A stretch of DNA of 64,000 bases from Chakrabartia sp. Lineage in GTDB: Bacteria > Pseudomonadota > Alphaproteobacteria > Sphingomonadales > Sphingomonadaceae. The notes beneath the pieces were generated by a model. It did not search any database and was not told where the DNA came from. It saw only the letters and a list, made by a program, of their open reading frames with translations. Of this stretch, positions 5,814 through 61,921 are shown piece after piece. Made by a program: the position numbers and the translations under genes. Location: contig JBJTNW010000012.1 of assembly GCA_046074265.1 (NCBI GenBank), positions 21,594 through 85,593 on the forward strand. The letters run 5' to 3'. Each line of letters opens with the position of its first letter. Position 1 is the first letter of the stretch.

Positions 5814-5908
5814 GGATTAGGGGAGGGACCAACGCCCTTCTCATTTTATCCCCAACTCCCTCAGCCGAATCGGTTAACATCCTGAAGGGCCGCGCCTAAG
5901 CTTTGCTT

Positions 5909-14468: not shown

Positions 14469-14537
14469 GGCCCAGACGATAGCGCCGCTTTGCGCCCACG
14501 TCACCCGGCCAATCCCCTTCCGGCATCTGGCCGGCGA

Positions 14538-14623
14538 TGGTGCGGACGGCGGGACTCGAACCCGCACTTCCAGGGGAAAGCAGATTTTAAGTCTGCTGCG
14601 TCTACCGGTTTCGCCACGTCCGC
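14538..14623 (-). tRNA. tRNA-Leu (anticodon TAA)
   Basis: GCGGACG acceptor stem, GCAGA-CT-TAA-AA-TCTGC anticodon arm, long variable arm, GGTTCGAGTCC T loop, encoded CCA. Confidence 0.95.
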
Positions 14624-14681
14624 GTGCGCGCGGCATCGGCGACACGGCGGCCCTCGTCAAGCGCAAAGGCGCCCTGCCGGG

Positions 14682-24186: not shown

Positions 24187-25377
24187 TCAATCGCTGTCGG
24201 GAAGCGCTGCTTGGTCCGCTGCGCCAATAAAGGTCGCAATTGCATGGGCACAGCGCGCAGAAGCGGTGCCGGGGCCGGTTGCAACAGTTGCCTCGGCTGC
24301 GGCCCGCTGCGCGGCGAGATAGGGCGTGGCATCTGCGGTCAGTGCGTCCAGCGTGGCGGGCAGTGCAGCCACATTGTCCAGCACCGGGCCAAGCGCCCAA
24401 TGACCGTAATTGGCGTCATGCTGCCAATCGACGGGGTGCGATTTGAGAAAAATCGCCGGGCGCGGCCGCATGATCCATTCATAAATCTGGCTGCTGACAT
24501 CGCCCAGATAGATGTCGCCGGCCAGAGTATAGGTCATATCGACCGAGCGGGTGCTGCCCGGATCAATCATCATATGATCAAGATGGCGATACCGATCGGG
24601 AACCGACCCCCGCCATTTCAACTCGCGATGTTCAAGCGAGCCATGGATCAGCTTGCGGAACAGCATGACATGCGGCGCAAACACCAAGTTATAGCGATCC
24701 TGCTCGGCAAAGAAGCGCAGCACATCTGGCCCAAAGCGATACCAAGAGGAAAGCTTGGGGTCGAAATGCGGGTTGTAGACCACTGTTGGCCGGTCATTGT
24801 TGAACAATTTGGGCTTGCGCGTCAGATCAAGCGTGTCGAACTTTGGATAGCCGCACACTTTGATGCGCGAGGCGAGCATCGGGTGGCGGTCCAGCATGCG
24901 GCCGCGGGTTTTTTCGCCGGCAACAAGGATCAGGTCAAACAGGCGCAGCTCATCTGAAAAGCCAACCGAGCGATCGCCGCTGCCATGTGGAATGCAGATC
25001 AACGCCGGGCGCGTCAGCTGCCAGCGCGAGCGCAACAAGGTAGAGGTGAATTCTGGCACGACCAGCGCATCAAAACCCTTCAGATAGGCCAGATGCCGCG
25101 ACAGGATGGCAACACGCCGGGCCGGGACAATGCGGCTCAGCGCGGAGGTGATGCCCTCCATCCAGGGGGAAAGCCCAAGCTCAACCACCCGCAGGCCAAG
25201 CCGGGCTGCGTCGTCGCCCAGCAGAGCGGAAACGGCGTTGCGTTGTGCGGCGGTCGACACCGCAATCTCAATATCGAGCGCGGGATGCGCCTGAGCCAGT
25301 GCCCGAGCGACGGGCAGGCTATGGGCAATCTGGTGAACATCTTCGTGGTTGAAGAGAAAGCAGACCGGCTTGGTCAT
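24187..25377 (-). CDS. TagF/CDP-glycerol glycerophosphotransferase-like GT-B protein
   Basis: IPHG, GYPKFD, VVYNPHF, FAPH and GDVSSQIYEW parallel the TagF motifs WHG, GYPRND, LYAPTF, HP and TDYSS..FDF. Confidence 0.55.
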   Translation of the reverse strand: MTKPVCFLFNHEDVHQIAHSLPVARALAQAHPALDIEIAVSTAAQRNAVSALLGDDAARLGLRVVELGLSPWMEGITSALSRIVPARRVAILSRHLAYLKGFDALVVPEFTSTLLRSRWQLTRPALICIPHGSGDRSVGFSDELRLFDLILVAGEKTRGRMLDRHPMLASRIKVCGYPKFDTLDLTRKPKLFNNDRPTVVYNPHFDPKLSSWYRFGPDVLRFFAEQDRYNLVFAPHVMLFRKLIHGSLEHRELKWRGSVPDRYRHLDHMMIDPGSTRSVDMTYTLAGDIYLGDVSSQIYEWIMRPRPAIFLKSHPVDWQHDANYGHWALGPVLDNVAALPATLDALTADATPYLAAQRAAAEATVATGPGTASARCAHAIATFIGAADQAALPDSD

Positions 25378-40424: not shown

Positions 40425-41426
40425 ATGCGCTTCTTTTCTGATAATGCCGCCAGCGTGCACCCGGCTGTTATGGCCGCGCTTGTCGAGGCCAATCATGTCG
40501 ATACTGCTTATGATGGCGATGCCCTGAGCCGGTCGCTTGACGGGCTGATGTCGGACCTGTTTGAAACTGAGGCGACGGCGATCTGGGTCTCTACCGGAAC
40601 CGCAGCCAATGCGCTGGCGTTGGCAAGCCTGTGCCCGCCTTATGGCAGTGTCCTGTGCCATCAGGATGCCCATATCCAGAATGATGAATGCGGCGCGCCG
40701 GAATTCTTCACCCATGGCGCCAAGCTGGCGTTGATCGACGGGGCCGGTGCGAAAATAACCGCCGAGGCGCTGGCGGCCAAGTTGGCGGCCACGCCGGGCG
40801 GTGTCCACTGGGCGCAGCCCCACGCCTTATCCATCACCAATGCGACCGAATATGGCCGGGTCTATGCGCCACATGAAGTGGCCGCCTTGGGAGAAGTCGC
40901 CAAGGCGCACGGCCTAGGCTTCCATATGGACGGCGCGCGTTTTGCCAATGCGGTGGCGACGCTGGGCTGTACGCCCGCGGCGGTTACCTGGCAGGCGGGC
41001 GTGGACGTGCTGTCATTTGGCTTTGCCAAAAACGGCGGCATGTCGGCAGAATGCCTGGTCTATTTTGATAAGGCCAAAGCTGCTGGGGTTATAGAGCGGC
41101 GCAAGCGGGCTGGGCATCTTCTGTCCAAGGGGCGCTATCTGGCGGCGCAGATTATCGCCCTGATTAAGGAGGATGTGTGGCTGGCCAATGCACGGGCCGC
41201 CAATGCCGGGGCGCAACAACTGGCTTTGGCCTGCGGTAACCGGCTGATCCATCCCGTGGAAGCCAACGAAGTATTCGCCCGGATGACGCCGGATGAGGCC
41301 GCCCGGCTGCGCGCGCAGGGCTTTGACTTTTACGATTGGGCGCAGGGCGAAGTCCGCTTTGTCGTCAGCTGGGACCAGCCCGATGCTGAGATTGCGGCCT
41401 TCGCGGCGGCGATTGCCGCTTTATGA
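40425..41426 (+). CDS. Low-specificity L-threonine aldolase family (PLP-dependent)
   Basis: FFSDN, YDGD, TGTAAN, HIQNDECGAPEF, HMDGARFANA, SFG..KNG (PLP Lys). Confidence 0.88.
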   Translation: MRFFSDNAASVHPAVMAALVEANHVDTAYDGDALSRSLDGLMSDLFETEATAIWVSTGTAANALALASLCPPYGSVLCHQDAHIQNDECGAPEFFTHGAKLALIDGAGAKITAEALAAKLAATPGGVHWAQPHALSITNATEYGRVYAPHEVAALGEVAKAHGLGFHMDGARFANAVATLGCTPAAVTWQAGVDVLSFGFAKNGGMSAECLVYFDKAKAAGVIERRKRAGHLLSKGRYLAAQIIALIKEDVWLANARAANAGAQQLALACGNRLIHPVEANEVFARMTPDEAARLRAQGFDFYDWAQGEVRFVVSWDQPDAEIAAFAAAIAAL

Positions 41427-42352
41427 CATCGGCGCCGCCCTCTTTCTTTCACCCCCGGGTGCTCATTCCCTTTCTTGTGGTCACGCTGATCTGGGGATCG
41501 ACCTGGTTTGTCATCCGTAGCCAGATTGCCGATGTGCCGGCCAGTTGGTCCGTGACATATCGCTTCCTGATTGCCGGGCTGGTGATGCTGGCGACGGCGG
41601 CGTTTAACGGGCAGCGCGTGCGCTTTACATGGCCCGAGCTTGGCTTTGCCGCGGTGATCGGCGTGCTGCAGTTCGCCTTTAATTTCAACCTTGTCTACGC
41701 GGCGGAACACCGTGTGACATCTGGGCTGGTGGCCGTGGTATTTGCTCTGCTGGTCATTCCCAATGCCGTGTTGGCGCGGGTCTTCCTGGGTGCGCGGTTC
41801 AGCGGGCGCTTTCTGTTCGGCTCGCTGCTCGCGATGGCTGGGGTGGGCTTGCTTTTTCTGCACGAAGTTCAGGCCGACCCGTCGTCAACCGCCCAGACAT
41901 TGCTTGGCGTTGGCCTGACGATCGGCGGGGTCATGGCGGCTTCCATTTCCAACGTCATGCAGGCCTCGGCGCGGGCGCGGACCTTTCCGGTGATGAGCCT
42001 TTTGGGCTGGGCCATGCTGGCTGGGACACTGGTCAACGCCGCCTGGTCCTGGTGGACGGCCGGCCCGCCCGTTTTTGGCCACGGCCTTGGTTATGCTTTG
42101 GGCCTTGGCTATTTGTCGATCGCCGCGAGTGCCTTGACCTTTACGCTTTATTTTGGGCTGATCCGCGATATCGGGCCAGCCAAAGCCGGATTTTCGAGCG
42201 TGCTGATCCCAATTATCGCCATGGCGATTTCCACCTTTTTCGAAGGCTATCGCTGGGCCCCGCTGACCATTTTTGGCGGGGTGGTGGTGCTGGTCGGCAT
42301 GGTCGTTGCCCTTGCCCCGTCATCGTCCGGCGTGGCACGCCGCGAGGCCTGA
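41423..42352 (+). CDS. EamA/DMT family transporter
   Basis: IWGSTW, two EamA repeats with about 10 TM helices; ATGA overlap. Confidence 0.88.
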   Translation: MTSAPPSFFHPRVLIPFLVVTLIWGSTWFVIRSQIADVPASWSVTYRFLIAGLVMLATAAFNGQRVRFTWPELGFAAVIGVLQFAFNFNLVYAAEHRVTSGLVAVVFALLVIPNAVLARVFLGARFSGRFLFGSLLAMAGVGLLFLHEVQADPSSTAQTLLGVGLTIGGVMAASISNVMQASARARTFPVMSLLGWAMLAGTLVNAAWSWWTAGPPVFGHGLGYALGLGYLSIAASALTFTLYFGLIRDIGPAKAGFSSVLIPIIAMAISTFFEGYRWAPLTIFGGVVVLVGMVVALAPSSSGVARREA

Positions 42353-43105
42353 GACATAATCGGGGTAGAGCGGCGCCCAACCGAGTACGCGCTTGGCCTT
42401 GCCATTGGCGACGCGGCGGTTTTCGGCATAAAAGGCGCGCGCCATAGGCGATAAATTGGCCTCGTCCATTGTCTGCAAGGGCGGAGTGGGTAGGCCCAGC
42501 ATTGCACAGGCATAGGCGATCACGTCATTTTGCGGGCCGGGATGGTCATCTGCCAGATTATAGGCGCCGGGCGGTGCCTCAAAACCCCGCATCACCCCCG
42601 AAGCAATATCGGCAACATGAATGCGGCTGAACACCTGATCGGGCAGCGCAATCCGATGCGCCCGGCCTTCGGCCACCCGATCGAGCGCCGAGCGCCCGGG
42701 ACCATAGATTCCTGGCAGGCGGTAGACGCGCGCACCAAGCGCCAGCCAGTGCTGATCGGCATCGTTGCGGTTGGCCCGGCGGCCCTTAATGGGCGCCGTT
42801 TCATCCACCCAGGCGCCGCCCGCATCGCCATAGACCCCGGTGGACGACAAATAGGCCAGCACAAGCTCTGGCCGCTGTTGCAACACATCACCATATTCGG
42901 TGAGGACCGGATCCCCATCGGCCATAGGGGGCACAGACGACAGCACATGGCTTGAACTGGCCAGCGCAAGGCGGACCGAGGCGTGATCGTCAAAGCGCAG
43001 CGTGCCGGCAGACCCGGTTGAGACAACGTCAAAGCCCGCATGCAGCGCCGCGCGCGCGATATAGCTGGCCGCATAGCCAAGCCCGAAGATGAAGAGCCGC
43101 TTCAT
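42320..43105 (-). CDS. NAD(P)-dependent epimerase/dehydratase (atypical SDR)
   Basis: FIFGLGY Rossmann motif, YLSSTGVYGD..G.WVDE, RLPGIYGPGRS, FSRIHV.DIA. Confidence 0.85.
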   Translation of the reverse strand: MKRLFIFGLGYAASYIARAALHAGFDVVSTGSAGTLRFDDHASVRLALASSSHVLSSVPPMADGDPVLTEYGDVLQQRPELVLAYLSSTGVYGDAGGAWVDETAPIKGRRANRNDADQHWLALGARVYRLPGIYGPGRSALDRVAEGRAHRIALPDQVFSRIHVADIASGVMRGFEAPPGAYNLADDHPGPQNDVIAYACAMLGLPTPPLQTMDEANLSPMARAFYAENRRVANGKAKRVLGWAPLYPDYVSGLAACHAGR

Positions 43106-43161
43106 CCTGTGGCGATGGCCGGATTGGGCGTCCCAATCAAGTCCCCCCAAAGGCGCAGGTG

Positions 43162-43551
43162 CTAGGCAGCGATCCGCGCCCAATTGTCAGACAGATCGCC
43201 AAATGCCTGTTGCAGCGCCGCCACCCGATCCGCATCTTGCGACAGGCGTAGCCGGGCGATTTCGGCGAGGGCGCTGTGATAGATTTGGGCAAGACTTTGG
43301 GCGAGCGGTCCTCCCTGATCCAGATCAAGCCCGGCAAGCAGGCTGTGCAAAATACTCGTCGCCCGGCCAAAATGCGCATTCGCCCGAACCCGGTCGGCAG
43401 ATCGCAGCGCATGGCGCAGCAGATCAAAGGCCAGCAGCAATTCTTCATAAAGGATCGCCACCAGTTCATGCCGCGACGCGGCTTCGATCCGGGCAGCATA
43501 GGCCAGCTGAGCATAATGCGCCCGGGCCTCGCTGGGGTGGGCTATCTTCAT
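43162..43551 (-). CDS. fliS: Flagellin export chaperone FliS
   Basis: Y......IEAAS.HELVAILYE...L..GLDLDQGG.LA..L..IY pattern; ATG 43551 overlaps the fliD stop (ATGA). Confidence 0.85.
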   Translation of the reverse strand: MKIAHPSEARAHYAQLAYAARIEAASRHELVAILYEELLLAFDLLRHALRSADRVRANAHFGRATSILHSLLAGLDLDQGGPLAQSLAQIYHSALAEIARLRLSQDADRVAALQQAFGDLSDNWARIAA

Positions 43552-44050
43552 TTGTTCCATTGGGCGATCTGCTGTTCAAGATAGGATTGGGTGGCCTTGA
43601 GCGCGGCCACCCGCGTGTCCATCCCGCTGAAGGTCCGGGTCAGCCGATCCTTATAGGCGGTCGCATCGCTTTCAACCTTGGTGCGCTGCACGCCAAGGGC
43701 ATCCAGCGTCTTTTGAAGCCGGGCCTTGAGGATATCGACCGGGCCATTGGCTGAAAGCAGCGAGGTCCGGAGCGCCTGAACAGCGCCGCTAATGCCGGGA
43801 TCGGTTGTGTCCGAGTGCGTAGCATCGCGCAGGGGCGAAAAAAGCGCGGCGACCGCATCGGGCGCCGCCTTCAATGCCGTGTCCAGCCGCTTGCTATCCA
43901 ATGTGACCGACCCGTCGCGATTGGTCTGAACGCCAATGTCCGCCAAGGTCCGCGGCCCTTGGGTGGTGCTGACAAGCGGCTGCGACAACAGGCGCGCAAG
44001 CCGGCGCTCCAGCTCAAACACGACGCGCGCGCCCGTGCTCGACCGGGCCG
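43548..44050 (-). pseudogene. fliD: Flagellar cap protein FliD, C-terminal fragment only (about 160 aa)
   Basis: TLADIGVQTNRDGSVTLD..RL and YKDRL...FSGMD..VA.LK.TQSYLEQQIAQW (FliD_C); N-terminal two-thirds absent; 5' boundary approximate. Confidence 0.8.
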
Positions 44051-44259
44051 AGCCCCGCAGCTTTGGCCTGTTGGGCGTTGACGGCCTGCAAGGCGTCCAC
44101 CATCGTGGCGCCGAAGCTGTCGGCCTTGGGCTCGGTCGCGGCGGCGGGGACCAATGGCTCGGCAGCGGGGCGTGCGCCTGTGGCGCGCTGAAGCGCGGCA
44201 TTCTGGTTCAGAATGCTCGACCGCATCTGCATCAATCGGCCGGTATCAATGCTCGTCAT
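44014..44259 (-). pseudogene. fliE: FliE N-terminal fragment, truncated before the conserved C-terminal helices
   Basis: ...SFGATMVDALQAVNAQQAKAAGL then unrelated GPVEHGRARRV-stop instead of the expected ..YERG...D...VM...Q.A...F....QVRNK tail. Confidence 0.75.
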
Positions 44260-44310
44260 TCGTTACGCCACGCCTCACTAGCCCGGGCAGAACGCGCCCG
44301 TGTTCCTCAA

Positions 44311-44326
44311 AGCAAAGCCTGTGCCA
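44311..44326 (-). promoter_or_regulatory. Sigma-54 promoter of the fliE operon
   Basis: Minus strand TGGCACAGGCTTTGCT has exact -24 GG / -12 GC spacing. Confidence 0.8.
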
Positions 44327-44392
44327 GTGCTGCTAAGTGACTGATCGTAAATCCCATCCATCGCTTGATGTCGAAAAGCTGACAGGCCCGGC

Positions 44393-44420
44393 TAAACGCC
44401 TGTCGCCCTGCCGCCGTTAA
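44393..44420 (+). promoter_or_regulatory. Putative sigma-28 (FliA) promoter of fliC
   Basis: TAAA-N16-GCCGTTAA versus consensus TAAA-N15-GCCGATAA; spacer one base long. Confidence 0.5.
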
Positions 44421-44471
44421 GGGCCTCGTGACTGCTCGATGCCCCGGGCGTTGCCGTTGGAAAGGAAGAAC

Positions 44472-45299
44472 ATGACTGTCATCAACACGAACGTCAGCGC
44501 CCTGCGGGCGCACAATGTCAGCCGCCAAGCCACTGCTGCGCTCGATACCTCCATGCAGCGCCTGTCGAGCGGCAAGCGCATCAATTCGGCGCGCGACGAT
44601 GCGGCCGGCCTCGCCATCACGACCCGTATGGATGCAAAGATCCGTGGCCTGACACAGGCCATCCGCAATTCAAATGACGGCATCTCGCTGGTGCAGACGG
44701 CGGAAGGCGGCATGGCCGAGATTTCGAACGTGCTGGTCCGGATGCGCGAACTGGCCGTGCAATCTTCAAGCGGCACGGCGGCGTCCACCGATCGTACGGC
44801 GCTGCATTCTGAATTTACCGCCCTTATCGCGCAAATTGGCGACATCGCCTCGCGGTCGGACTTTAACGGCATCAAGCCGCTGGATGGATCGACGACGACG
44901 GCGGGCATCGCCATCCAGACTGGCGTCAACACCGGCGAATCGATCAATGTAAAGATCGCCAATCTTCAGGCTGGCACCGGCGGCCTTGCGGTGGCGGCGC
45001 TCGATATTTCGAGCGATACAGGCGCCAGCTCGGCGCTTGCCACGCTCGACACCGCGATCAACACGGTGGCTTCAGAACGGGCGAAGCTGGGTGCGGTGCA
45101 GAACCGTCTCGACTCGACCGTCAACAACCTGACCTCGACCGTCACCAACCTCGCTGAATCCAAGTCGCGGATCGAAGATACTGATTTTTCGCTGGAAACG
45201 ACAAAGCTCGCCTCGGCGCAAATCCTGGCCCAGGCGTCCACCGCGATGCTCGCTCAGGCGAACCAGAGCCAGCAAGGTGTGCTGAACCTGCTTCGCTAA
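44472..45299 (+). CDS. fliC: Flagellin (short, 275 aa)
   Basis: [57 protein letters not shown]....VL.LLR; AAAGGA RBS. Confidence 0.97.
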
Positions 45300-45394
45300 T
45301 CTCTCTGGATAGAGAGATTGGCGCGGCGGCTTCCGCGCTCCCCACCGGGCGGAGGCCGCCACCTCCCTTCGTTCCCAGACCTCCCTGGAGCCTT

Positions 45395-45424
45395 AACCCC
45401 GCGGCCGCGTGCTGCGGGGTTTTT
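45395..45424 (+). terminator. Intrinsic terminator about 100 nt downstream of fliC
   Basis: AACCCCGCGGC-CGCGT-GCTGCGGGGTT followed by further Ts. Confidence 0.7.
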
Positions 45425-45503
45425 CTCTGCCGCAAATATTGCTTTCATGGGGTATTGCCCCTAGGCGCGCTTGCGTATTTTGCGCCAACAGGAACAGCAG
45501 CCC

Positions 45504-46736
45504 ATGACCCAATCTTCCACCGCCGATATCAAGCGGGTTGTCCTTGCCTATTCGGGCGGTCTCGACACCAGCGTCATCCTGAAATGGCTGCAACAGACCT
45601 ATCAGTGCGAAGTCGTGACGTTCACGGCCGATCTGGGGCAGGGCGAAGAGATTGAACCCGCCCGGCAAAAGGCGCGTCAGGCGGGCGTGAAGGAAGAGCA
45701 TATCTTCATCGAAGATCTGCGCGAAGAATTTGTGAAAGACTTCGTCTTCCCGATGATGCGCGCCAATGCGCTGTATGAAGGCCTGTACCTGCTCGGCACC
45801 TCGATCGCGCGGCCGTTGATCGCCAAGCGGCAGATTGAGATCGCCAAGCAAGTGGGCGCCGATGCCGTCAGCCATGGCGCGACCGGCAAGGGCAATGACC
45901 AAGTGCGCTTTGAACTGGGCTATTATGGCCTCAACCCCGACATCAAGGTGATCGCGCCGTGGCGCGAATGGGATCTGACAAGCCGCACGCGTCTGATTGA
46001 ATTTGCCGAACAGCACCAGATTATGATCCCGCGCGACAAGCGGGGCGAAAGCCCGTTTTCGACCGACGCGAACCTGCTTCACACCTCGTCCGAGGGCAAG
46101 GTGCTGGAAGATCCGTGGGAAGAAGTGCCGGACTATGTCTATTCGCGCACCGACCATCCGGAAAACGCGCCCGATACGCCTGAATATATCACGGTGGATT
46201 TTGAGCGCGGCGATGCGGTTGCGATCAATGGTGAAGGCCTGTCGCCCGCGACCCTGCTCGCCAAGCTGAATGATTATGGCAAGCGGCACGGCATTGGCCG
46301 GCTTGATCTGGTGGAGAACCGCTTTGTCGGCATGAAGTCGCGCGGGATGTATGAAACGCCGGGCGGCACGATCCTGCATCTGGCGCATCGTGGCATTGAA
46401 CAGATCACGCTGGATCGCGGGGCCGCACATCTTAAAGACAAGCTGATGCCGGAATATGCCGAGCTGATTTATAACGGCTTCTGGTTCTCGCCCGAGCGCG
46501 AGATGCTTCAGGCTGCGATTGATCATAGCCAGCATCATGTAACGGGCACGGTGCGGCTGAAGCTGTATAAGGGCGGCGTCCATATTGTTGGTCGCAAGTC
46601 GCCCATGTCGCTTTATTCTGAAAAGATTGTGACTTTTGAGGATGATGCTGGCGCCTATGATCAGCGTGACGCACAAGGCTTTATCAAGCTCAATGCGCTG
46701 CGGCTGCGACTTCTTGGGCGGCGCGGCGGCCTTTAA
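45504..46736 (+). CDS. argG: Argininosuccinate synthase
   Basis: [50 protein letters not shown]. Confidence 0.98.
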
Positions 46737-46753: not shown

Positions 46754-48292
46754 GTGGCTGATCCTCGGCAGAAAGACTGGTGGGGCCATCCCGCGCTTCT
46801 GCTGCTGGTCGTTTTTCTCGCCGGGATGCCGCTTTGGCATCCGCTGGTGCCGCCGCTGATCGATTTGCCGGCCCATATGGGGCGTTATGCGGTCCAGGTC
46901 GATGCCGGTCATTCGCCGTTGCTCGCCCGCTGGTATGCGTTCGACTGGCATTGGATCGGCAATCTGGGTGTTGACCTTCTCGTTCAGGTCTTGGCGCCGG
47001 TCTTCGGCGTAGAAGCGGCGACCAAATGGACGGTGGTTGCCATTCCCATGCTGGGCGCGGCCGGGTTCTTGGCGGTTGCGCGCGAAGTTCATGGGCGGAT
47101 CCCCGCCACCGCCTTTCTGGCGCTGCCGCTGCTCTGGTCCTATCCTTTCCTGTGGGGCTTTGTGAATTTTGCGCTGGCAATGGCGCTGGCCTTTCTTGCC
47201 TTTGCACTCTGGCTTTGGCTTGGACGGCGGGGCTTTTACCGCCTGCGCTTCGTCCTTTTTCTAGGCGTGTCGCTGCTCTTATGGACCGCCCATATCTATG
47301 GCTGGGCGTTGTTGTGCGTTCTGGTCGGCTGTGTCGAGCTGGTTCGCGCGGGCCTGTTTGACCAAGCGGGTGTCCGCGCCATTGGCCGGGCGGTGGCCCA
47401 TAGCCTGTGTTTGCTCCCGCCCCTGGTGCCGATGCTATTAACCTTTTCCGCCGGCGGGGCAGGCGGCCAGCCTTTTGCGCATGGCTGGTTTAACTTTGCG
47501 ATCAAGGCGCGCTGGGTGGAGAGCGTCCTGCGCGACCGTTGGTCGACTTTTGACCAACTCAGCCTGATCCTGCTGCTGCTTGTCCTTTTTGGCGCGCTGG
47601 GGCGCTGGGCGTGGCAGTGGCAGCGCCCTTCCGGCTTGCCGCTGGCGCTTGCGGCCTTGGTTCTGGCGCTTTTCTATTTGCTGTTGCCGCACGCGCTGTT
47701 GGGGTCCGCCTATGCCGATATGCGGCTATTGCCATATATGCTGGCGGTCGCTGTTCTGGCGATCGGACCGATGCTGTCGGGCGCATCGCCTGTCGCGGTG
47801 GCGGCGCTGGCCTTTTACGGGCTGCGGCTGGGCGCAACCACCTATAGCATGGTTCTATATAATGAAAGCTACCGCGCGGAAGTCGGGGCGATCGATCACC
47901 TTCCGGCGGGTGCCCGTGTTGTCGCGCTTGTTGGCAAACCCTGTGCCCCGGAATGGGCGGTGCATCGGCTTGACCATCTGCCAAGCCTTGCGATCATCCG
48001 CCGCCACGCCTTTGTGAATGATCAATGGCAGGCCGCGGGCGCGCAGCTGATTTCGGTGCGTTATCGTGCGACGGCGCCCTTTTTGGCTGACCCGTCGCAA
48101 TTTGTTGTTGAGCCGCGCTGTGAACGTCCTGAACGCCGCGCCTTTGGCCGTGCAATCGCGCTTATCCCGCGGGACGCGGTGGATTATGTCTGGGTGATCC
48201 AGCAGCCGGATGCCCCGGCAGATATGACCGGCCTTGTCCCGGTATGGCGGGCAGGGCGCAGCGCGCTTTATCGGGTTGTCACGACAGGATAG
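46754..48292 (+). CDS. Polytopic membrane protein, putative GT-C-fold glycosyltransferase (paralog of 1699..3201)
   Basis: PPLIDLPAHMGRY...[48 protein letters not shown]; GTG start; converges on the gtrAB-methyltransferase operon. Confidence 0.55.
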   Translation: MADPRQKDWWGHPALLLLVVFLAGMPLWHPLVPPLIDLPAHMGRYAVQVDAGHSPLLARWYAFDWHWIGNLGVDLLVQVLAPVFGVEAATKWTVVAIPMLGAAGFLAVAREVHGRIPATAFLALPLLWSYPFLWGFVNFALAMALAFLAFALWLWLGRRGFYRLRFVLFLGVSLLLWTAHIYGWALLCVLVGCVELVRAGLFDQAGVRAIGRAVAHSLCLLPPLVPMLLTFSAGGAGGQPFAHGWFNFAIKARWVESVLRDRWSTFDQLSLILLLLVLFGALGRWAWQWQRPSGLPLALAALVLALFYLLLPHALLGSAYADMRLLPYMLAVAVLAIGPMLSGASPVAVAALAFYGLRLGATTYSMVLYNESYRAEVGAIDHLPAGARVVALVGKPCAPEWAVHRLDHLPSLAIIRRHAFVNDQWQAAGAQLISVRYRATAPFLADPSQFVVEPRCERPERRAFGRAIALIPRDAVDYVWVIQQPDAPADMTGLVPVWRAGRSALYRVVTTG

Positions 48293-50503: not shown

Positions 50504-52294
50504 ATGCAAACGGGCAAACCACTTCCTCGCCTGAATTGGGCGCAGCAGCTTCTGGGCCTTTGGCTGGTCGTTGCCGCCGTTTTGATCGCTTTTCGCTGGC
50601 AGAATATCGATTATCTGATCCTTGCCGATACCGATGATAATTTGCGGCTGGCACAGGTTAAAGCCTGGCTGGCAGGGCAAGGCTGGTATGATCTGCGCCA
50701 GTATAAGCTGGACCCGCCGGGCGGCGCCAACATCCACTGGTCGCGGCTGCCAGACTTGCCCCTTGGCGGGATTATGGCTGGACTGTCGCCATTTCTTGGG
50801 CGGCTTATGGCAGAAAAAATTGCCATTGGGGTGGCGCCGCTGTTCCCGCTGGGCGTGGCCATGCTGGGCGTCACGCTGGTCGCACGGCGATTGCTGGGCG
50901 GCGCTGCATGGCTTTTTGCGGTGGCGTTGTTGTGCAGCGGTGCCGCAGCCTTGGGAATGTTCCTGCCAGTTCGTATCGATCATCATGGCTGGCAATTGGC
51001 GTTTCTGGCGCTGGCGCTGGCAGGGCTGGCCGATCCCGAAGCGCGACGCGGTGGGCTCACCGTTGGTCTGGCGACCGCGGCGTCGCTATCGGTGGGGCTG
51101 GAGATGCTGCCCTATCTGGCATTGTGCGGCGGGTTGGTGGGGCTGCGTTGGTTGATGGATGTCGATCAGGCGGCACGCCTGCGCGCTTATGGGCTGGCGC
51201 TTGCCCTTGGCACGGCACTTGGCTTTGCGGTCTTTGCGTCGCAAGCCAATCGCGCGCCGCGCTGCGATGCGCTGACCCCGGTCTGGCTGTCGACCTTGGT
51301 CCTCGCCGGGGCCTTGCTCGTGGTGCTTCCGGCGCTCTCGGCGCGGCGGCTGCCGATGCGGATTGCGGCGGCGGTGCTGTCGGCGCTGTTGGTTGCCGTC
51401 TTTTTCGCAGGGGCGTGGCCGCAATGCCTTGGCCGGCCCGAAGGCCTGTCCGATGCGCTGTATCGCGACTGGTTCATGCAGATTTCAGAGGTGCGCCCGC
51501 TTTACAAGCTTGATGCCAATGCCGCGATCAGCATTGCAGCGCTGCCGGTGCTGGGCCTTTTGGGAAGTCTGGTGATGATCTGGCGGGATCGGGCGCAATG
51601 GCGCGTCTGGGGCCAGTTTGCGGTGCTCGGCGCTGCCGCGTTGGCCATGCTCTTTTGGCAGATGCGCGCGGGTCCTGCGGCCCAGATCTTGTCGATCCCG
51701 GGCGCCACTGCGCTGATGATGCAGCTTGTGCCGGGGCTGGCGCGGTCGCGCGTTTACGCGGTGCGTGCTTTTGGACCCATCGCCGCCTTCATCCTGCTTT
51801 CGGGAATTGTCGTGCCGATCAGCGGTGCGGTCGCGCCGTTGGTGATGCCCGCCAAGCCTGCGTCCAGCCCGTCTGTCACCGCGCGTGCCCGGCAGGCATC
51901 TGCCCGGTGCACCACGCTTGCCGCCCTGCGGCCCATTGCGCGCGTTCAGCCGGGCACCATGTTTACTTTTGTTGATCTGTCCCCCCGGCTTATCGCCATG
52001 ACCCCGCATAAGGCCATTGCCGGGCCTTATCATCGAAACGGCGCGGCGATCCTGGATGTCTTTTCGGCCTTTCGGGGCGACCCTGATCGGGCGCAGCGCA
52101 TCATCCGTGCGCATCATGCGGGCTATGTCCTGATCTGTCCGGGAATGGCAGAGGGGAATAATCACCTCAAGGCCGGCCCAAAGGGGTTTCTGGCTCAGTT
52201 GCAAAAGGGCCAAACGCCGGACTGGCTAGAGCCTATGCCGCTTCCCGCCGACAGTCCGTTTCGTCTTTGGCGCGTCCGGCCAGCCCAGCGTTAA
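50504..52294 (+). CDS. Polytopic GT-C membrane protein with STT3/AglB-like motifs
   Basis: DTDDNLRL (EL1 acidic), PPGGANIHWSRLPD, RIDHHGWQ, about 13 TMs, periplasmic C-domain with FVDLSP and AGPYHRN; divergent from gtrA. Confidence 0.55.
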   Translation: MQTGKPLPRLNWAQQLLGLWLVVAAVLIAFRWQNIDYLILADTDDNLRLAQVKAWLAGQGWYDLRQYKLDPPGGANIHWSRLPDLPLGGIMAGLSPFLGRLMAEKIAIGVAPLFPLGVAMLGVTLVARRLLGGAAWLFAVALLCSGAAALGMFLPVRIDHHGWQLAFLALALAGLADPEARRGGLTVGLATAASLSVGLEMLPYLALCGGLVGLRWLMDVDQAARLRAYGLALALGTALGFAVFASQANRAPRCDALTPVWLSTLVLAGALLVVLPALSARRLPMRIAAAVLSALLVAVFFAGAWPQCLGRPEGLSDALYRDWFMQISEVRPLYKLDANAAISIAALPVLGLLGSLVMIWRDRAQWRVWGQFAVLGAAALAMLFWQMRAGPAAQILSIPGATALMMQLVPGLARSRVYAVRAFGPIAAFILLSGIVVPISGAVAPLVMPAKPASSPSVTARARQASARCTTLAALRPIARVQPGTMFTFVDLSPRLIAMTPHKAIAGPYHRNGAAILDVFSAFRGDPDRAQRIIRAHHAGYVLICPGMAEGNNHLKAGPKGFLAQLQKGQTPDWLEPMPLPADSPFRLWRVRPAQR

Positions 52295-52319: not shown

Positions 52320-52685
52320 GGGTGGGGGTTTCTGTTGCCCGGCACCCCCGGGCCGCTGGTTTCTGCTTCTGTTGCCCGGCGCAGTCCGTGCCGCGTTCTA
52401 TTTGGGTAACTTTAAGCCACGAAGGCCCTTAGTTACGCAGCCAGAGCAAGTGCTTCGTTATCGTTGGCACTTATAGGTTTTGAACGGTTTTACGGCGCAT
52501 TCAGGCCGGGTAAAAATACCGTCTTTCAATACACGTCGATCCTAGTTCGGCCCCGTCATGCCCTTCGCCCGCAAGCGGAGGAGATGGTGGAGCCGCCGGG
52601 TACCGCCCCCGGGTCCGCTGCATCTATTTCACGGCACAGTTTATCACCATAGCCGGGCGAACCCGGCTCAACTGATATAGGCGGG
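52320..52685 (-). ncRNA. ssrA: Two-piece (circularly permuted) tmRNA
   Basis: Acceptor piece ends GGGGGCGGTACCCGGCGGCTCCACCA at 52585; coding piece starts GGGGCCGAACTAGGATCGAC at 52554; tag reading frame 52468-52433 encodes ANDNEALALAA-stop. Outer ends approximate. Confidence 0.93.
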
Positions 52686-52761
52686 CGTGCCGCAGATTTA
52701 AACCCCGATGCGGCCAAGCGATGGGCTTGTTCTAATCTCTACTCACCGCTAGGGTATTTAA

Positions 52762-55338: not shown

Positions 55339-55428
<90 letters not shown>

Positions 55429-55472
55429 GCACCCTTTGATTTATAAGGGTAATTTTGCAAATTTTCTATTTT

Positions 55473-55492
55473 GCCCACGAAAAAGCCCACGA
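55473..55492. repeat. Direct repeat GCCCACGA x2 (candidate integrase arm-type sites)
   Basis: GCCCACGA at 55473-55480 and 55485-55492, 44 nt downstream of tRNA-Ser. Confidence 0.5.
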
Positions 55493-55601
55493 CAGCTGGT
55501 TGGTCTGTGGCGATAGATTGCGAACTATTGCGGCTGGCCACTGAGGGTAGAAGGTGACACCATATGACCTGCAATCGGACAAATAGGGACATAGGTGCGT
55601 C

Positions 55602-56204
55602 GTGGAAAATTCCGGGGAAAGCAACGAAGCGCCATTGCAGGCCCTATTGCGCGACCTCAAAGATGACATCGTTTCGGATTTAGGTCTGACGCTATTTCGC
55701 TATGTTTGGCGGTGGGAGGAAACCGCAGACCCTTACTGGATAGATCTGGCGATAGTTGAGACAGGCAAGAATGGATATCGGCTACCGCCGTCGCTCCAAA
55801 ATCTTGCCACACACACCGCGAGCCTCCGCCTTATGGGGAGCGAACGCAAAGGGAGGGCCCCCAAAGCGCTCAAAGAAGAAATAAAACTGCGGGCCTTCAT
55901 GCTCATGGCGTCTTTAATCGCCGCCGATCAAAATGGCGAACCGATTTTTGAGGAGGGCAAGAAGCTCGGGGTGATTTCGGCGGCTGCAGCGCACGCTGCG
56001 AACGCAATGGCCCAGCAATTTGGTCGTCAGTATTATACAGCAAGCGTACTAGAGAAATTTTACAAGCAGCAGTGCAAGAGCCCGATGCCGTGGCTGGAAG
56101 AACTCGTTCAGACGGAGATTTTTGAGCGCCACCCAGAGGCGTTAGCATTGTTGAACGGCGAGTTGGCCAAGCTCCGTAGACTTCAAAGGGGCAATCGGCA
56201 TTAG
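55602..56204 (+). CDS. Hypothetical protein (island-borne)
   Basis: 200-aa ORF with GTG start, no recognisable motif, upstream of the HTH gene on the same strand. Confidence 0.6.
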   Translation: MENSGESNEAPLQALLRDLKDDIVSDLGLTLFRYVWRWEETADPYWIDLAIVETGKNGYRLPPSLQNLATHTASLRLMGSERKGRAPKALKEEIKLRAFMLMASLIAADQNGEPIFEEGKKLGVISAAAAHAANAMAQQFGRQYYTASVLEKFYKQQCKSPMPWLEELVQTEIFERHPEALALLNGELAKLRRLQRGNRH

Positions 56205-56313
56205 TGCCGGGAAGAAAACGAACATTTTATTCCCGTTTAGTAGGCTCAATAGTGCCCTAACTGCGTCTCCACCGAAGCATTGCCAGCACGCGTTGGCTCG
56301 GAGGAGAAGTTAC

Positions 56314-56532
56314 ATGGAACCCATCGCACTTACTGTAAGTGATACGTCCAAAGCCGCCGGCTTTGGGAAGACTACAACGTACAAGCTCATTAAAGAAGGC
56401 AAGCTCAAGGCCATCAAAGTCGGGCGTCGTACACTTGTTACAATGGCAAGCATCAAGGCCCTCCTCGAAGGGACGCCGAGCTCGGCAACTGCCAGCACAG
56501 GCGACGCAGATGTGAAAGAGGTGGTCCAATGA
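56314..56532 (+). CDS. Excisionase/AlpA-like helix-turn-helix protein
   Basis: LTVSD..KAAGFGKTTTYKLIKEGKLKAIKVGRRTLV pattern; GGAGAAG RBS. Confidence 0.85.
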   Translation: MEPIALTVSDTSKAAGFGKTTTYKLIKEGKLKAIKVGRRTLVTMASIKALLEGTPSSATASTGDADVKEVVQ

Positions 56533-56831
56533 ACGCCCCCTTCATTAGCGGACAAGCCATGCCACCCCTGTACGCATCTGTCGATGTTGTGATGTCGAAT
56601 ACGGCAGGGCTTATCCTGCAGCGCATTAAAAGGGGTGAGTTGCAGGATCGTTTTACCCAGCGCGATATTACGCAAAAAGGTTGGTCAGGTCTTAGTGATC
56701 CCAAACGCGTCGAAATGGCCTTGGCTACGCTTCGAGAGTTCGGATGGGTGAGGTCGAATAAGGTTTCTACATCAGGTCGTCCCAAGGAGGTCTTTGAGAT
56801 TAACCCGGCAGCCATGACGCAACACGTCTGA
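56529..56831 (+). pseudogene. DUF3987/YfjI-like replication protein, C-terminal winged-helix only (apparent internal deletion)
   Basis: LILQRIKRG...FTQRDITQKGWSGL...ALATL.EFGWVR....SGRPK..FEINP resembles DUF3987 C-termini; only 100 aa; ATGA-coupled to the HTH gene. Confidence 0.5.
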
Positions 56832-56838
56832 CCTTAGA

Positions 56839-56884
56839 CACCCTCAAAACCCTCAAAAGGTTACTTTTGAGGGTTTTGAGGGTG
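56839..56884. repeat. Perfect 21-bp inverted repeat with internal ACCCTCAAA tandem units (origin-like)
   Basis: CACCCTCAAAACCCTCAAAAG-GTTA-CTTTTGAGGGTTTTGAGGGTG. Confidence 0.9.
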
Positions 56885-57001
56885 CATTTGCCATTACAGT
56901 TTTTTCGACAGCAGGCCCTCCTGCCACGTTGGAATTAATCGACAAAATCAATCAAAAATGGTATTTACGCAGAAGATTTCGATTAATCTTGAGGCGCGGC
57001 C

Positions 57002-57586
57002 ATGGGCGGCTTTGGTTCAGGGCGACGCAGCAGCCGACCGACGACAGATGACTGCATCTGCCTAGACCTGTCCCTTCTAAAGCGGCTCGGCATGTTGAAG
57101 CGCCATTGCCTAAACCGGCGAAACCTGTCTTGGAGTTGCGGAGGGAAGAAGACCGCCGAACTGGCTGTCGTTGCCGACATCGACTGCCTCGAGCAATACC
57201 CTTGCCTGAAGATCACCGGATACGCGAACGGGCAGCGTGTAGACTGCATGCTTTTTCTGAGCTCCGCGCCCATGCGCTTTGGTGGAGAGCGCTGGTATGC
57301 GGTGTGCCCAATGACCGGACTGATGTGCTCGACGATCATCCTGCCGCCCGGCCGGTCGCGCTTCGCCTCTGTGAAGGGCTGGAACGTGGCCTACAGCTCG
57401 CAGAACGAGTGCGAGGTGCACCGTGCACACCGCGCCATCGACAAGGCCGAGAGGCGGCTCAAGGTGCTGTCCAAGTACACGAGGAAGCCCACACGGCAGC
57501 GGATACGGGACAATATCCGTGCGCGTCAGCTTTTCGTGTGGGAAGAGATGGACAGGATTGCCAGCACGCTGTTGCGAACTGGCTAG
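57002..57586 (+). CDS. Hypothetical protein, MGGxGSGR family typical of satellite/integrative elements
   Basis: MGGFGSGRR N-terminus, GGERWYAVCP.TG..C...LPPG..RFAS...W.VAYSSQNE, basic helical C-terminus. Confidence 0.65.
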   Translation: MGGFGSGRRSSRPTTDDCICLDLSLLKRLGMLKRHCLNRRNLSWSCGGKKTAELAVVADIDCLEQYPCLKITGYANGQRVDCMLFLSSAPMRFGGERWYAVCPMTGLMCSTIILPPGRSRFASVKGWNVAYSSQNECEVHRAHRAIDKAERRLKVLSKYTRKPTRQRIRDNIRARQLFVWEEMDRIASTLLRTG

Positions 57587-59215: not shown

Positions 59216-59556
59216 GCTGCGCCCTTTTGCTGAACGATTTCGGGCGCATATTGGGCAAGGGGCGTGCAGGCCTGACCGCCACAACAATTTTCGGTCAGAA
59301 AGGCCATCAAGCCGTTCATCGCCTCAAAATCGGCGGCGTAAATGAGGGAGCGGCTTTGGCGGCGTTGGGTCACAAGGCCCGCGTGCAGCAGCTGCGCCAG
59401 ATGAAAGCTCATCGAGGACGCGGGAACACCCAGCGCCTCGGCCAAGGCCCCGGCGGGCATCCCGTCGGGCCCTGCCTGTACAAGGAGGCGGTATGCCGCC
59501 AAGCGATGTTCTTGGGCTAGGGCGCCGAGACTTCGGACAGCGTCAGCGGAAATCAT
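59212..59556 (-). CDS. arsR: ArsR/SmtB repressor with C-terminal CC-x4-C site
   Basis: ALAQEHRL..YRLLVQAG..G, SFHL..L.HAGLV..RR.SR..IY, FLTENCCGGQAC. Confidence 0.93.
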   Translation of the reverse strand: MISADAVRSLGALAQEHRLAAYRLLVQAGPDGMPAGALAEALGVPASSMSFHLAQLLHAGLVTQRRQSRSLIYAADFEAMNGLMAFLTENCCGGQACTPLAQYAPEIVQQKGAA

Positions 59557-59564
59557 ATCTTCCT

Positions 59565-59590
59565 CATATTTCGATATTTGTGGAAATATG
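59565..59590. promoter_or_regulatory. ArsR operator (inverted repeat)
   Basis: CATATTTC-N10-GAAATATG immediately upstream of arsR. Confidence 0.7.
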
Positions 59591-59623
59591 GGTGTTGTTG
59601 CCTGCTGTCAATATTTATGCCGG

Positions 59624-60415
59624 TCAAACGCGCGCTTTTGGGATGCGCGGTCGGCCGCGCTTGTTAGTTTTTTGTTCGTTCTGAGCAGCCGTTGACATCA
59701 AGGTTTCGACGGCCTGCCATATCGCCCTGTAATTAAATGCAGCGCTTGATCTGGGGGCAAATGCCTCAATCGGGGCCAGCTTAACTGTCATCTGCTCCAC
59801 AATGCTCGCCTGCGGAATGATAGGCCAGTCGGCGTGATCTGCCACAAATGTCCGATGAAGCGCCTTTCGCGTGTCCGCCATGGAAACAAGGGGGAACAAG
59901 CGAGGGAGCTTCCCCGGTTGCTTGGATAGATAAGCTTCCATCTGTTCAAGTCCGCGAAGGCCCAGCGGCGTCGGAACGACGGGCACGAGAACAAGGTCTG
60001 ACGCTTTGAACACCTGATCGCTCACTTCATTAAGGCCAGGCGGACAATCAAGAATGATGTAATCATAAAGGGGGACGAGATCCTGAAGTATCTTCTTCAA
60101 ACGCTTTGGCTTGCCCACATCGAGCAATAGTTTTTCCAAAGAGCGCAGCGACGGATCAGCGCCCAGTATATCGAGCTTCGGCCAATTGGTTGGCGCAATG
60201 AGCGCGCCGGGGGACAAGGTGCGGGCAAAAATCTCCCGCGCGTTTCCATTTGCTTTACTCGTCGCGCAGAGGAACGAGGCGGATCCTTGGGCGTCCAAAT
60301 CCCATAAGAGCGTTTTGCGCCCTGATGCGATCGCCGAAACACCGGCCAGATTTACAGCAAGTGTCGTTTTCCCAACGCCGCCTTTGATATTATGTACCGC
60401 GATGACCTTAGCCAA
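59624..60415 (-). CDS. ParA/Soj family ATPase (orphan)
   Basis: NIKGGVGKTT deviant Walker A, WDLDAQG, YDYIILDCPP; TTG start; no parB nearby. Confidence 0.88.
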   Translation of the reverse strand: MAKVIAVHNIKGGVGKTTLAVNLAGVSAIASGRKTLLWDLDAQGSASFLCATSKANGNAREIFARTLSPGALIAPTNWPKLDILGADPSLRSLEKLLLDVGKPKRLKKILQDLVPLYDYIILDCPPGLNEVSDQVFKASDLVLVPVVPTPLGLRGLEQMEAYLSKQPGKLPRLFPLVSMADTRKALHRTFVADHADWPIIPQASIVEQMTVKLAPIEAFAPRSSAAFNYRAIWQAVETLMSTAAQNEQKTNKRGRPRIPKARV

Positions 60416-60529
60416 AACTGTCCCCCCACCCGACCGAAGAACGGCCCAAACCGGCCAAGGCGCGATCCGCTGCCTAGCCTCATCGATATGAAATACGGAC
60501 GAAATCTTATTCTTATATGACAGGTTGTT

Positions 60530-61921
60530 ATGTTTATCTGCCGATCAACCAGAAACCCCTCTTACCGCTTAGCCAAGCCAAGCTTGGTTGGCTTTGCCCT
60601 GATGACAGCCTGCCTCTCAGCGCCAGCCCAGGCGGCTGAAGGCGACACCGCAGGTGCCTTGCGCGTTTCCGGCAGTGTGCGCGTCCGCTATGAAACCTTG
60701 GATGGGCAGGCGCGCGCGGGTCTTAACGCCACCGATGAGCAACTCGCGCTACGGACAACGCTGTTGGCAGAATATAGGCATGGCGCTTTCCGCCTCGGCG
60801 GCGAACTTTATGATAGCCGGGCCTATCTTGGTAAACAGGGAAGCGCCATCAGCTCCAATGATGTGAATGCGTTTGAGCCCGTTCAGGCCTATCTGGCCGC
60901 CGATATCGACCCACCCTTTATCCCCGGCGCAAAGGCCAGTGTGCAGCTCGGTCGCTTTCTCCTCAATCTTGGGTCAAGGCGGCTGATTGCCGCCGATGAT
61001 TATCGCAATGCCACCAACAGCTATACCGGTGTTCGCGGCGACCTGACGTTGCGGGGTGGGGGAACGGCGACCCTTTTTTATACCCTGCCGCAAACTCGCT
61101 TGCCGGACGACCTGCCCTCCGTTCTCGATAATGTGGCGCGTCTCGACCGGGAAAGCTTCCGCCAGCAACTATGGGGCGGCGTAGTTGCCCAGCCTCATGC
61201 GCTCGGCCGCCTCATGGTGGAAGCGAGCTATTACCGCTTTCAGGAAAAGGACGCGCCCGGATTTCCAACCCGGGACAGGAACCTGCATTCCATCGGCGCA
61301 CGACTGATCACTGCGCCCCAAATCGGCCGTTTTGATTACGAAGTGGAAGGCATTTACCAGTTCGGCCATGCAAGCCCGTCCACCGCAGCGCAGGCGGCCC
61401 GCCTTCCGGTCGGTGCACAATTTTTCCATGCGGACATGGGGTACAGCTTTCCAGGCCCGATGCAGATCCATCTATCCGTCGAGTATGACAGGGCGAGCGG
61501 CGATCGCGGCCGGGGAAAATATACCCGCTTCGATACACTGTTCGGCATGCGTCGCGGCGATTTCGGCCCGGCCGGGATTTATGCAGCAATTGGCCGCACC
61601 AATATTAGTTCCCCCGGCGTGCGTGTTGAAATCGCACCAAATAAAAAATGGGATGCCTTCGCCACCTATCGCGTCCTTTGGCTGGCGAGCGCTGTGGACA
61701 GTTTTTCGACGACCTCGGTCCGCGATACCAGCGGCGCATCCGGCAGCTTTGCCGGCCATCAAGTCGAAGGTCGGGTCCGTTACTGGTTCGTCCCCAACCG
61801 CCTGCGCGGTGAAGTAAATGCGGCATGGCTCGCCAAAGGCCGCTTTTTGAAGAACGCGCCCAGCGCCCCAGAAACGGGAGACACTCATTATCTTGCGATG
61901 GCCGTAACAGTGTCCTTTTAG
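60530..61921 (+). CDS. Alginate export (AlgE-like) family outer-membrane beta-barrel
   Basis: Signal peptide, SVRVRYE first strand, GRFLLNLGSRRLI..DDYRN, ASGD....RFD.LFG, terminal Phe. Confidence 0.8.
   Translation: MFICRSTRNPSYRLAKPSLVGFALMTACLSAPAQAAEGDTAGALRVSGSVRVRYETLDGQARAGLNATDEQLALRTTLLAEYRHGAFRLGGELYDSRAYLGKQGSAISSNDVNAFEPVQAYLAADIDPPFIPGAKASVQLGRFLLNLGSRRLIAADDYRNATNSYTGVRGDLTLRGGGTATLFYTLPQTRLPDDLPSVLDNVARLDRESFRQQLWGGVVAQPHALGRLMVEASYYRFQEKDAPGFPTRDRNLHSIGARLITAPQIGRFDYEVEGIYQFGHASPSTAAQAARLPVGAQFFHADMGYSFPGPMQIHLSVEYDRASGDRGRGKYTRFDTLFGMRRGDFGPAGIYAAIGRTNISSPGVRVEIAPNKKWDAFATYRVLWLASAVDSFSTTSVRDTSGASGSFAGHQVEGRVRYWFVPNRLRGEVNAAWLAKGRFLKNAPSAPETGDTHYLAMAVTVSF

Follow-up and report, generated by a model that had tools for sequence, protein, structure and literature searches.

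Bacteria that are host-restricted or were evolved in the laboratory are known to lose flagellar genes by deletion, and such reductive loss is found in non-motile lineages such as Shigella, Yersinia pestis, and Bordetella pertussis. In freshwater plankton, for instance in Polynucleobacter, strains have been reported to differ in whether flagellar clusters are present. Here, we analyzed a 64-kb stretch of DNA from Chakrabartia sp. (contig JBJTNW010000012.1; the whole stretch is referred to as the window), in which the 5' part of the rod-adaptor gene fliE is joined to the 3' part of the filament-cap gene fliD. Very probably, the locus represents a genuine deletion, generated by microhomology-mediated recombination, that took approximately 11.5–12 kb out of the main flagellar operon. 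The host is an uncultured freshwater bacterium of the Sphingomonadaceae and is Chakrabartia-like. As flagellar gene loss by deletion is already known, the window is a new instance of ordinary gene loss. Motility loss with deletions is also described in an account of experimentally evolved Campylobacter jejuni (PMC7677240). A literature search on flagellar loss in Chakrabartia found no paper.

Like the reductive lineages, the window shows a multi-gene deletion that would disable a complete flagellar regulon, leaving truncated genes and orphan late genes. Unlike these, its host is a free-living freshwater sphingomonad known from metagenomes only, the fliF–flhB deletion is single and clean, with no insertion sequence, and sister lineages carry separate deletions. 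The polymorphism seen in Polynucleobacter has a parallel in near-identical strains that differ in their flagellar genes (the related loci L009 and L010 versus intact strains), but the absence here is a deletion with breakpoints inside genes and not a gained or lost genomic island. With microhomology-mediated (RecA-independent) deletion, the joins share the 2–3 nucleotides (nt) of homology in the window, 7 nt in L009, a 10-nt filler in L010, and the lack of long repeats, whereas the mechanism here is read from junction sequence only. The intact fliE–fliS operon, represented by Chakrabartia godavariana PRB40 and related MAGs (metagenome-assembled genomes; together loci L011–L016), has the same downstream neighbors as the window, and the remnants are 57–59% (C-terminal part of FliD) and 52–57% (FliS) identical to it. 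These genomes retain fliG–flhB and a FliD of 449 amino acids (aa), whereas the window lacks the whole block.

Anatomy of the fliE–fliD Junction

On the minus strand, an open reading frame (ORF) of 81 aa extends over 44259..44014, with the stop codon of the fliE frame at 44016–44014. Residues 1–70 match 37 FliE proteins of 111–118 aa (best E 2.8e-14, 51–64% identity), the named ones being mostly from Sphingopyxis, and when the FliE proteins of two relatives (116–118 aa) were used as tblastn queries, the aligned part consisted of their residues 1–68 only. This significant similarity, together with a position divergent from fliC as in loci L002, L003, and L009, identifies the fragment as derived from FliE. 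Residues 71–81 show no likeness to FliE; the underlying bases (44014..44049), read in the fliD frame, encode ARSSTGARVVFE, in agreement with the relatives. A full FliE of approximately 100–118 aa including the C-terminal helix (ATLQVRNKLLSAY.DIM.MPV) is thus not present. The ORF had no match to Pfam FliE (PF02049) in the Pfam search, because the conserved C-terminal part is missing.

A second minus-strand frame, offset from the fliE frame by one base, is open over 44201..43548 and carries FliD_C (PF07195; Pfam E 1.1e-15, profile positions 97–235 of 236). The N-terminal FliD_N domain (PF02465) was not found in the remnant by the Pfam search, and the C-terminal domain is partial; FliD of the relatives is about 449 aa long, and the protein of C. 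godavariana (449 aa) served as the reference for numbering. The remnant is 57–64% identical to FliD of L009–L017 and ends at its natural stop codon TGA (43550–43548), which overlaps the start of fliS (ATGA). The sequence-only reading of this region had described fliE as joined out of frame to the 3' third of fliD, with the FliE frame stopping at 44014 and the FliD frame continuing to a natural stop that overlaps fliS; all of this was confirmed by our reading of the frames, the remnant corresponding to residues ~282–449. A GTG codon of the fliD frame at 44021 overlaps the stop of the truncated fliE in GTGTTTGA (44014–44021), and gene callers predict "FliD" products of 146–157 aa there. Both these and the 81-aa "FliE" are pseudogene fragments, although public annotations list them as genes.

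The position of the join was determined codon by codon. The fliE frame tracks the fliE gene of L009 through GCT GCG GGG CTC, the last fliE-like codon being CTC (Leu70, 44052–44050). The FliD-like reading opens with TCG (44051–44049) and continues as TCG GCC CGG TCG AGC ACG, encoding the motif SARSST that is common to the window, L009, and L011–L014. The switch of frame noted earlier is therefore real, but it lies at 44052–44050 and not, as had been proposed, near 44050–44030. A relative with approximately 90–92% identity to the window is present in an aquatic metagenome run (X8) at a depth of about 3x. Its contigs reach the fliD breakpoint of the window and have no coverage of the fliE side. 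One contig of 314 nt matches the window over 43840–44052, the match ending exactly at the latter position, and the 101 nt that follow are unlike the window. Of these, 30 visible letters (reverse-complemented) encode ...AFNDLRKTLA directly ahead of SARSST; this is genuine upstream FliD, and FliD of L009 reads AMNDLKKTLA-SARSST at the same site. Because the X8 relative matches the window up to 44052 and then runs into upstream fliD, the fliD-side breakpoint is placed at 44052/44053, with 2–3 nt (CTC) that appear assignable to either gene.

To define what is missing, we turned to the intact loci. The contigs with the closest FliE proteins (L002 and L003) show fliC divergent from fliE-F-G-H-I-J-K-L-M-N-O-P-Q-R-flhB, and the nearest intact genomes (L011–L016), whose sequence reaches upstream as far as fliG, show fliG through fliR-flhB-fliD-fliS followed by the three genes found downstream of fliS in the window. 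Between them, these loci display the order fliE through fliR-flhB-fliD-fliS that the sequence-only reading had expected for sphingomonads. Scanning one genome for each species with an alignment of FliD_C as the query gave 80 sphingomonad loci, which were annotated by tblastn. The N-terminal part of fliD is in place upstream of the FliD_C match in 76 of them, most with flhB and fliR before it; in two (L045 and L088) the locus is cut by the contig end, and only two of the 80, L009 and L010, lack the block. These are the two loci closest to the window. The Sphingobium loci contain an extra ORF of 152 aa after flhB. At L006:9111-10543, FliD is shown as two genes (297 + 180 aa), but we rejected this as a split fliD, as it reflects a scaffold gap, the run of N appearing as XXXX in the translation.

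By comparison with L002 and L012, 11.5–12 kb is missing, comprising the 3' 40% of fliE, fourteen whole genes (fliF, G, H, I, J, K, L, M, N, O, P, Q, R, and flhB) and the 5' 63% of fliD. No tblastn match to the fliF–flhB genes was obtained anywhere in the window, and about 55 further ORFs of the window have housekeeping functions, none belonging to a flagellar, motor, or chemotaxis family. The flanks are collinear with the intact orthologous locus, the interior is present in L002, L003, and L011–L016, and the close relative in X8 (~90% identical) is intact at the fliD breakpoint. The proposal of a single deletion of more than 10 kb that removed fliF through flhB agrees with all of these observations.

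Age of the Loss and Deletions in Related Loci

A list of 38 differences that separate the window from the X8 relative within the fliD remnant is biased by codon position, with 24 at position 3, 10 at position 1, and 4 at position 2 (chi-square p 2.4e-4). In terms of the fliD frame, they correspond to 19 synonymous and 10 non-synonymous codon changes, as opposed to 3:26 and 1:27 in the other two frames, and the ratio of non-synonymous to synonymous substitution rates (dN/dS) is about 0.18. Because of this third-position bias and the uninterrupted fliD of the X8 relative, the remnant was probably a working gene for most of the time since the split of the two lineages. The deletion would then be younger than about 8–10% nucleotide divergence, i.e., evolutionarily recent. 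The sequence-only reading had also taken the loss to be recent from the clean appearance of the remnants, and the comparison with a close relative grounds this better than open reading frames alone.

The two other loci without the block were examined in the same manner. In L009, a MAG (NASQAN2014_190_B_bin.61), argG-fliC is divergent from a complete fliE, which is followed by an in-frame fusion of FliF(1–113) to FliD(~128–end) and by fliS-orf287-EamA. The fusion ORF (5385–6671) encodes 428 aa, and its join at 5718–5724 is a 7-nt microhomology, CAAGGCC, that encodes part of G-Q-G in both genes. A 224-nt contig from a different study (X14) spans this join with 0 differences. Intact alleles from the species of L009, or one very close to it, are found in three runs: X12, where the flanks are identical; X17, with contigs 6.5 and 12.4 kb long that show about 95–98% identity over the matched stretches; and X18. 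These contigs either pass the join and enter genuine fliF (…AGQG-LPKAAPSGDS) or come in from upstream fliD (…SATSAIGQG). In metagenomes from freshwater and drinking water, near-identical strains carry either the intact or the deleted allele.

In L010, a Chakrabartia sp. MAG (JBJTAW010000163.1), codon 44 of fliC is joined to fliD within the codon for the first S of "SST". The join (L010:517-533) contains 10 nt of filler (TGTTCCCCGT), and the flagellin lacks its first 43 codons and promoter. X30 spans this join. Three other studies (X32, X33, and X34) contain strains that are 96–98% identical to L010 and intact, with contigs that go on to encode the N-terminus of flagellin (ALDTAMQRLS) and the upstream part of FliD (LKKTLSSARS). 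Between L009 and L010 (89–92% nucleotide identity), dN/dS is 0.03 for fliC, 0.07 for the fliD remnant, and 0.07 for fliS, with values of 0.09–0.12 for neighboring genes. These ratios indicate that fliC, the fliD remnant, and fliS were constrained for nearly the whole L009/L010 divergence, including the now headless fliC of L010.

The losses in the window, L009, and L010 thus appear to be separate and recent, given their different joins, the intact near-identical alleles and the low dN/dS. We considered the possibility that all three descend from one old deletion, for example with a join of the L009 type, that was eroded further in the window and L010. The deleted intervals of the window and L010 both contain that of L009, a loss of 1451 nt would turn an L009-like state into that of L010, and a neighbor-joining tree based on two flanking genes does not discriminate between a grouping of the window with L009/L010 (23%) and one with the intact L012 (74%). 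Such a history is nevertheless exceedingly unlikely, as strains 96–100% identical to L009 and L010 are intact at both breakpoints, fliD of the ~90% relative is uninterrupted where the window has its breakpoint, and for the fliD remnant of L009 versus L010 neutrality expects about 144 non-synonymous differences, where 14 are seen. The identity of FliS and the FliD remnant is lower in the deleted lineages than between intact ones (53–64% vs. 72–73%, at similar housekeeping divergence); decay since an old loss was rejected as the explanation, again because of the intact near-identical alleles and the low dN/dS.

With separate deletions as the favored history, the fliD-side breakpoints of the window (44051) and L010 (L010:532, equivalent to L009:6173) are only 11 nt apart. 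The chance of such spacing in a gene of 1350 nt is about 0.02, as a post-hoc estimate. A DNA hairpin acting as a hot spot near the shared breakpoint was rejected for lack of conservation, its z value being -2.8 in L013 only, as against +0.3 to +0.4 in L009 and L012, and no promoter-like site within the fliD remnant accounts for the proximity either. The proximity may reflect coincidence, a constraint to keep fliS expressed, or a deletion hot spot of another kind.

As the two nearest lineages lost the operon in different ways while near-identical strains keep it, motility appears to be a polymorphic and repeatedly lost trait in the Chakrabartia-like group. It is possible, although we put this forward tentatively, that loss repeatedly targets the fliE–flhB operon in Chakrabartia-like sphingomonads of freshwater and drinking water, pointing to ongoing selection against flagella; flagellum-dependent phages, grazers, and energy saving would then be candidate causes. 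In metagenomic time series, the three junction sequences could serve to mark motile and non-motile alleles and thereby to test for such selection and its causes.

Alternative Explanations and Consequences for Motility

The source of the window is a metagenome that also contains flagellar genes of other sphingomonads, and the related MAG contig L009 holds an obvious assembler artifact (a perfect palindrome). The join might accordingly be an assembly chimera, in which a contig ending in fliE was wrongly connected to one starting inside fliD while the real operon is full, as the sequence-only reading had considered. We find this extremely improbable. An independent Logan assembly of the freshwater metagenome SRR29270173 contains a 5231-nt contig that encodes the truncated FliE protein of the window and spans window positions 42800–45400, including the join, at a word depth of 60 (60.3) and without a single difference. 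In the source run, no competing contig was found over 43880–44230 at an identity of at least 88%, and there were no loose ends or branches. The 2–3 nt shared at the join are far too short to mislead a 31-mer graph. Moreover, the genes flanking the join (argG-fliC to one side, fliS-orf287-EamA-lyase to the other) are ordered and oriented like a single locus, as in L009–L016, and the analogous joins of the relatives were confirmed in independent samples.

Further searches traced the distribution of the region. Eight runs hold pieces of it, which are identical or differ by 1 mismatch in X2–X7 and represent the ~90–92% relative in X8; in these other runs, 43900–44080 is uncovered except for the intact fliD of X8. 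A junction-only query across runs matched the source run alone. Exact look-ups of the window FliS and of the gene at the start of the window gave no match, that of a gene near its end returned only a 6-kb contig without flagellar genes, and the closest match to the FliD remnant in a scan of JGI metagenomes had 47% identity.

Several points weigh against our interpretation. The evidence for the join consists of assembler contigs only, and the join was found in the single run SRR29270173. The ancestral bases on the fliE side are deduced from relatives that are only ~60% identical in protein, an intact allele of the window's own species not having been found. The list of differences from the X8 relative is incomplete, covering 38 of 50. 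The conclusion on motility is based on 64 kb of window sequence and some 2 kb adjoining it on the right, and the source-run contigs that align to the fliG–flhB region of a relative are short, low-depth pieces from other organisms, which gives this comparison little power.

Illegitimate recombination through the CTC at 44052–44050 would have joined codon 70 of fliE to codon ~282 of fliD. As the product is shifted by one base, the truncated fliE ORF terminates after 11 foreign codons, while fliC, the sigma-28-like promoter motif ahead of it, and fliS remain intact. No insertion sequence, mobile element, or long repeat is present at the three joins. A microhomology-mediated event is proposed because the joins show 2–3 nt, 7 nt, or filler in place of such elements.

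Assembly of the flagellum needs FliF (MS ring) and FliG, FliM, and FliN (C ring), as well as FliH, FliI, and FliJ (export ATPase complex), FliO, FliP, FliQ, FliR, and FlhB (export gate), and FliK (hook-length control). The truncated FliE and FliD, the former missing its C-terminal helix and the latter its N-terminal two thirds, are likewise predicted to be unable to function. Since the MS ring, C ring, and export gate genes are lost, the cell is likely to be aflagellate and non-motile, with flagellin that cannot be exported. The deletion would represent a clean, one-step loss of motility in a free-living bacterium, in which the genes of the MS ring, C ring, export ATPase, and export gate were removed together. 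The surviving fliC, fliS, and fliD remnant are most readily seen as young relics and not as working genes; the leftover flagellin and chaperone genes and the two gene stumps would then be datable relics of the former operon.

Two alternatives accept the deletion but not these consequences. The organism could still be flagellated if a second complete gene set or a relocated copy existed elsewhere and the locus were a dead duplicate. The intact fliC, promoter-like motif, and fliS are in keeping with this, as is the fact that the genome sequence at hand consists of the window and roughly 2 kb, and two flagellar systems are described for some alphaproteobacteria such as Bradyrhizobium (PMC4823718). 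We nonetheless regard it as quite unlikely, since the locus has the position and neighbors of the single fliE–fliS operon found per relative, and nothing related occurs in the window or in the ~2 kb recovered past its right-hand end. The source run also contains no 60x contig related to fliG–flhB, which is weak evidence given an expected identity of ~70–75% against a floor of 80%.

Alternatively, the C-terminal piece of FliD, translated from the GTG at 44021, could be retained together with FliS for some function, in line with the 146–157-aa products of the gene callers, the purifying selection in the fliD frame and the two independent deletions that end within 11 nt in fliD. The selection signal is, however, fully explained by deletions younger than the comparisons, and the fliC of L010, which is clearly dead (5' end and promoter gone), still shows a dN/dS of 0.03. 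No promoter-like (sigma-70-like) site was found inside the fliD remnant, and we know of no role for a C-terminal FliD fragment without the export apparatus. A retained function is thus very unlikely, and loss of a formerly functional operon remains our preferred interpretation.

Flanking Genes and Other Features of the Window

The features of the locus are listed in Table 1. The flagellin ORF opens at 44439, with ATG 44472 as its likely start, and the protein has full-length matches to the flagellins of L002 (79% identity), L003 (70%), and L009 (84%). Upstream of fliC in L002, a motif matching that of the window is present as TAAA-N15-GCCGTTAA. The genes orf287, EamA, and lyase follow fliS in L009–L016 as well (64–84% identity), and orf287 is conserved (71–75%) beside fliS in all Chakrabartia-like relatives.

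Table 1. Coordinates of the features at the flagellar locus (window positions).
Feature	Coordinates	Strand	Description
Beta-eliminating lyase gene	40425-41426		After the EamA gene
EamA gene	41423-42352		After orf287
orf287	42320..43183	-	Right synteny anchor; about 261 aa in gene calls; no Pfam family at E<=1e-5
fliS	43162..43560	-	Flagellin chaperone, intact; Pfam FliS (PF02561) E 5.9e-20, positions 4-114 of 115; start overlaps fliD stop
'fliD	43548..44051	-	Filament-cap gene, last 167 codons + stop; residues ~282-449 of 449-aa FliD
Tail of fliE' ORF, out of frame	44014..44049	-	11 codons (GPVEHGRARRV) + TGA; fliD-derived DNA in fliE frame
Deletion junction	44050..44052	.	Putative 2-3 nt microhomology, CTC on minus strand
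fliE'	44050..44259	-	Rod-adaptor gene, codons 1-70; C-terminal ~46-48 codons gone
Sigma-28-like promoter motif, TAAA-N16-GCCGTTAA	44393..44420	+	Motif search, ahead of fliC; putative function
fliC (flagellin)	44472..45299	+	Intact, divergent from fliE'; Flagellin_N (PF00669) E 3.8e-42, Flagellin_C (PF00700) E 1.7e-25
Intrinsic-terminator-like hairpin	45395..45421	+	After fliC; 11-pair stem, then T run
argG (argininosuccinate synthase)	45471..46736	+	Left synteny anchor; 95% identical to gene adjoining fliC in L009

Between fliS and orf287, a gene for a 422-aa membrane protein with an HELGH motif (M48-like peptidase) was observed at L013:10938-12206. It occurs at this position in five intact relatives (L011–L015) and is absent there from the window, L009, L010, and L016. 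The palindromic contig of L009 (L009:1-16662, JBEDGC010000017.1) belongs to a species-representative MAG; its arms are 100% identical reverse complements over 7944 nt, and the center at 8718 lies inside the EamA gene, marking it as a hairpin artifact of the assembler.

Elsewhere in the window, four sizeable ORFs that, like orf287, show a good coding signature have no Pfam family at E<=1e-5, at 46754-48292 (+), 50504-52294 (+), 1699-3201 (+), and 24187-25377 (-). The regions 55428-57002, which directly follows tRNA-Ser(cga) at 55339-55428, and 59520-60530 contain no convincing ORF as judged by codon-position GC (guanine plus cytosine). A tRNA-Leu(taa) at 14538-14623 (-) overlaps the 5' end of an ORF for a 548-aa solute-binding protein (13020-14666), so that the start of this gene must lie further in. 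Finally, a two-piece (permuted) tmRNA of the alphaproteobacterial type is encoded at 52358-52706 (-), with the tag ANDNEALALAA.

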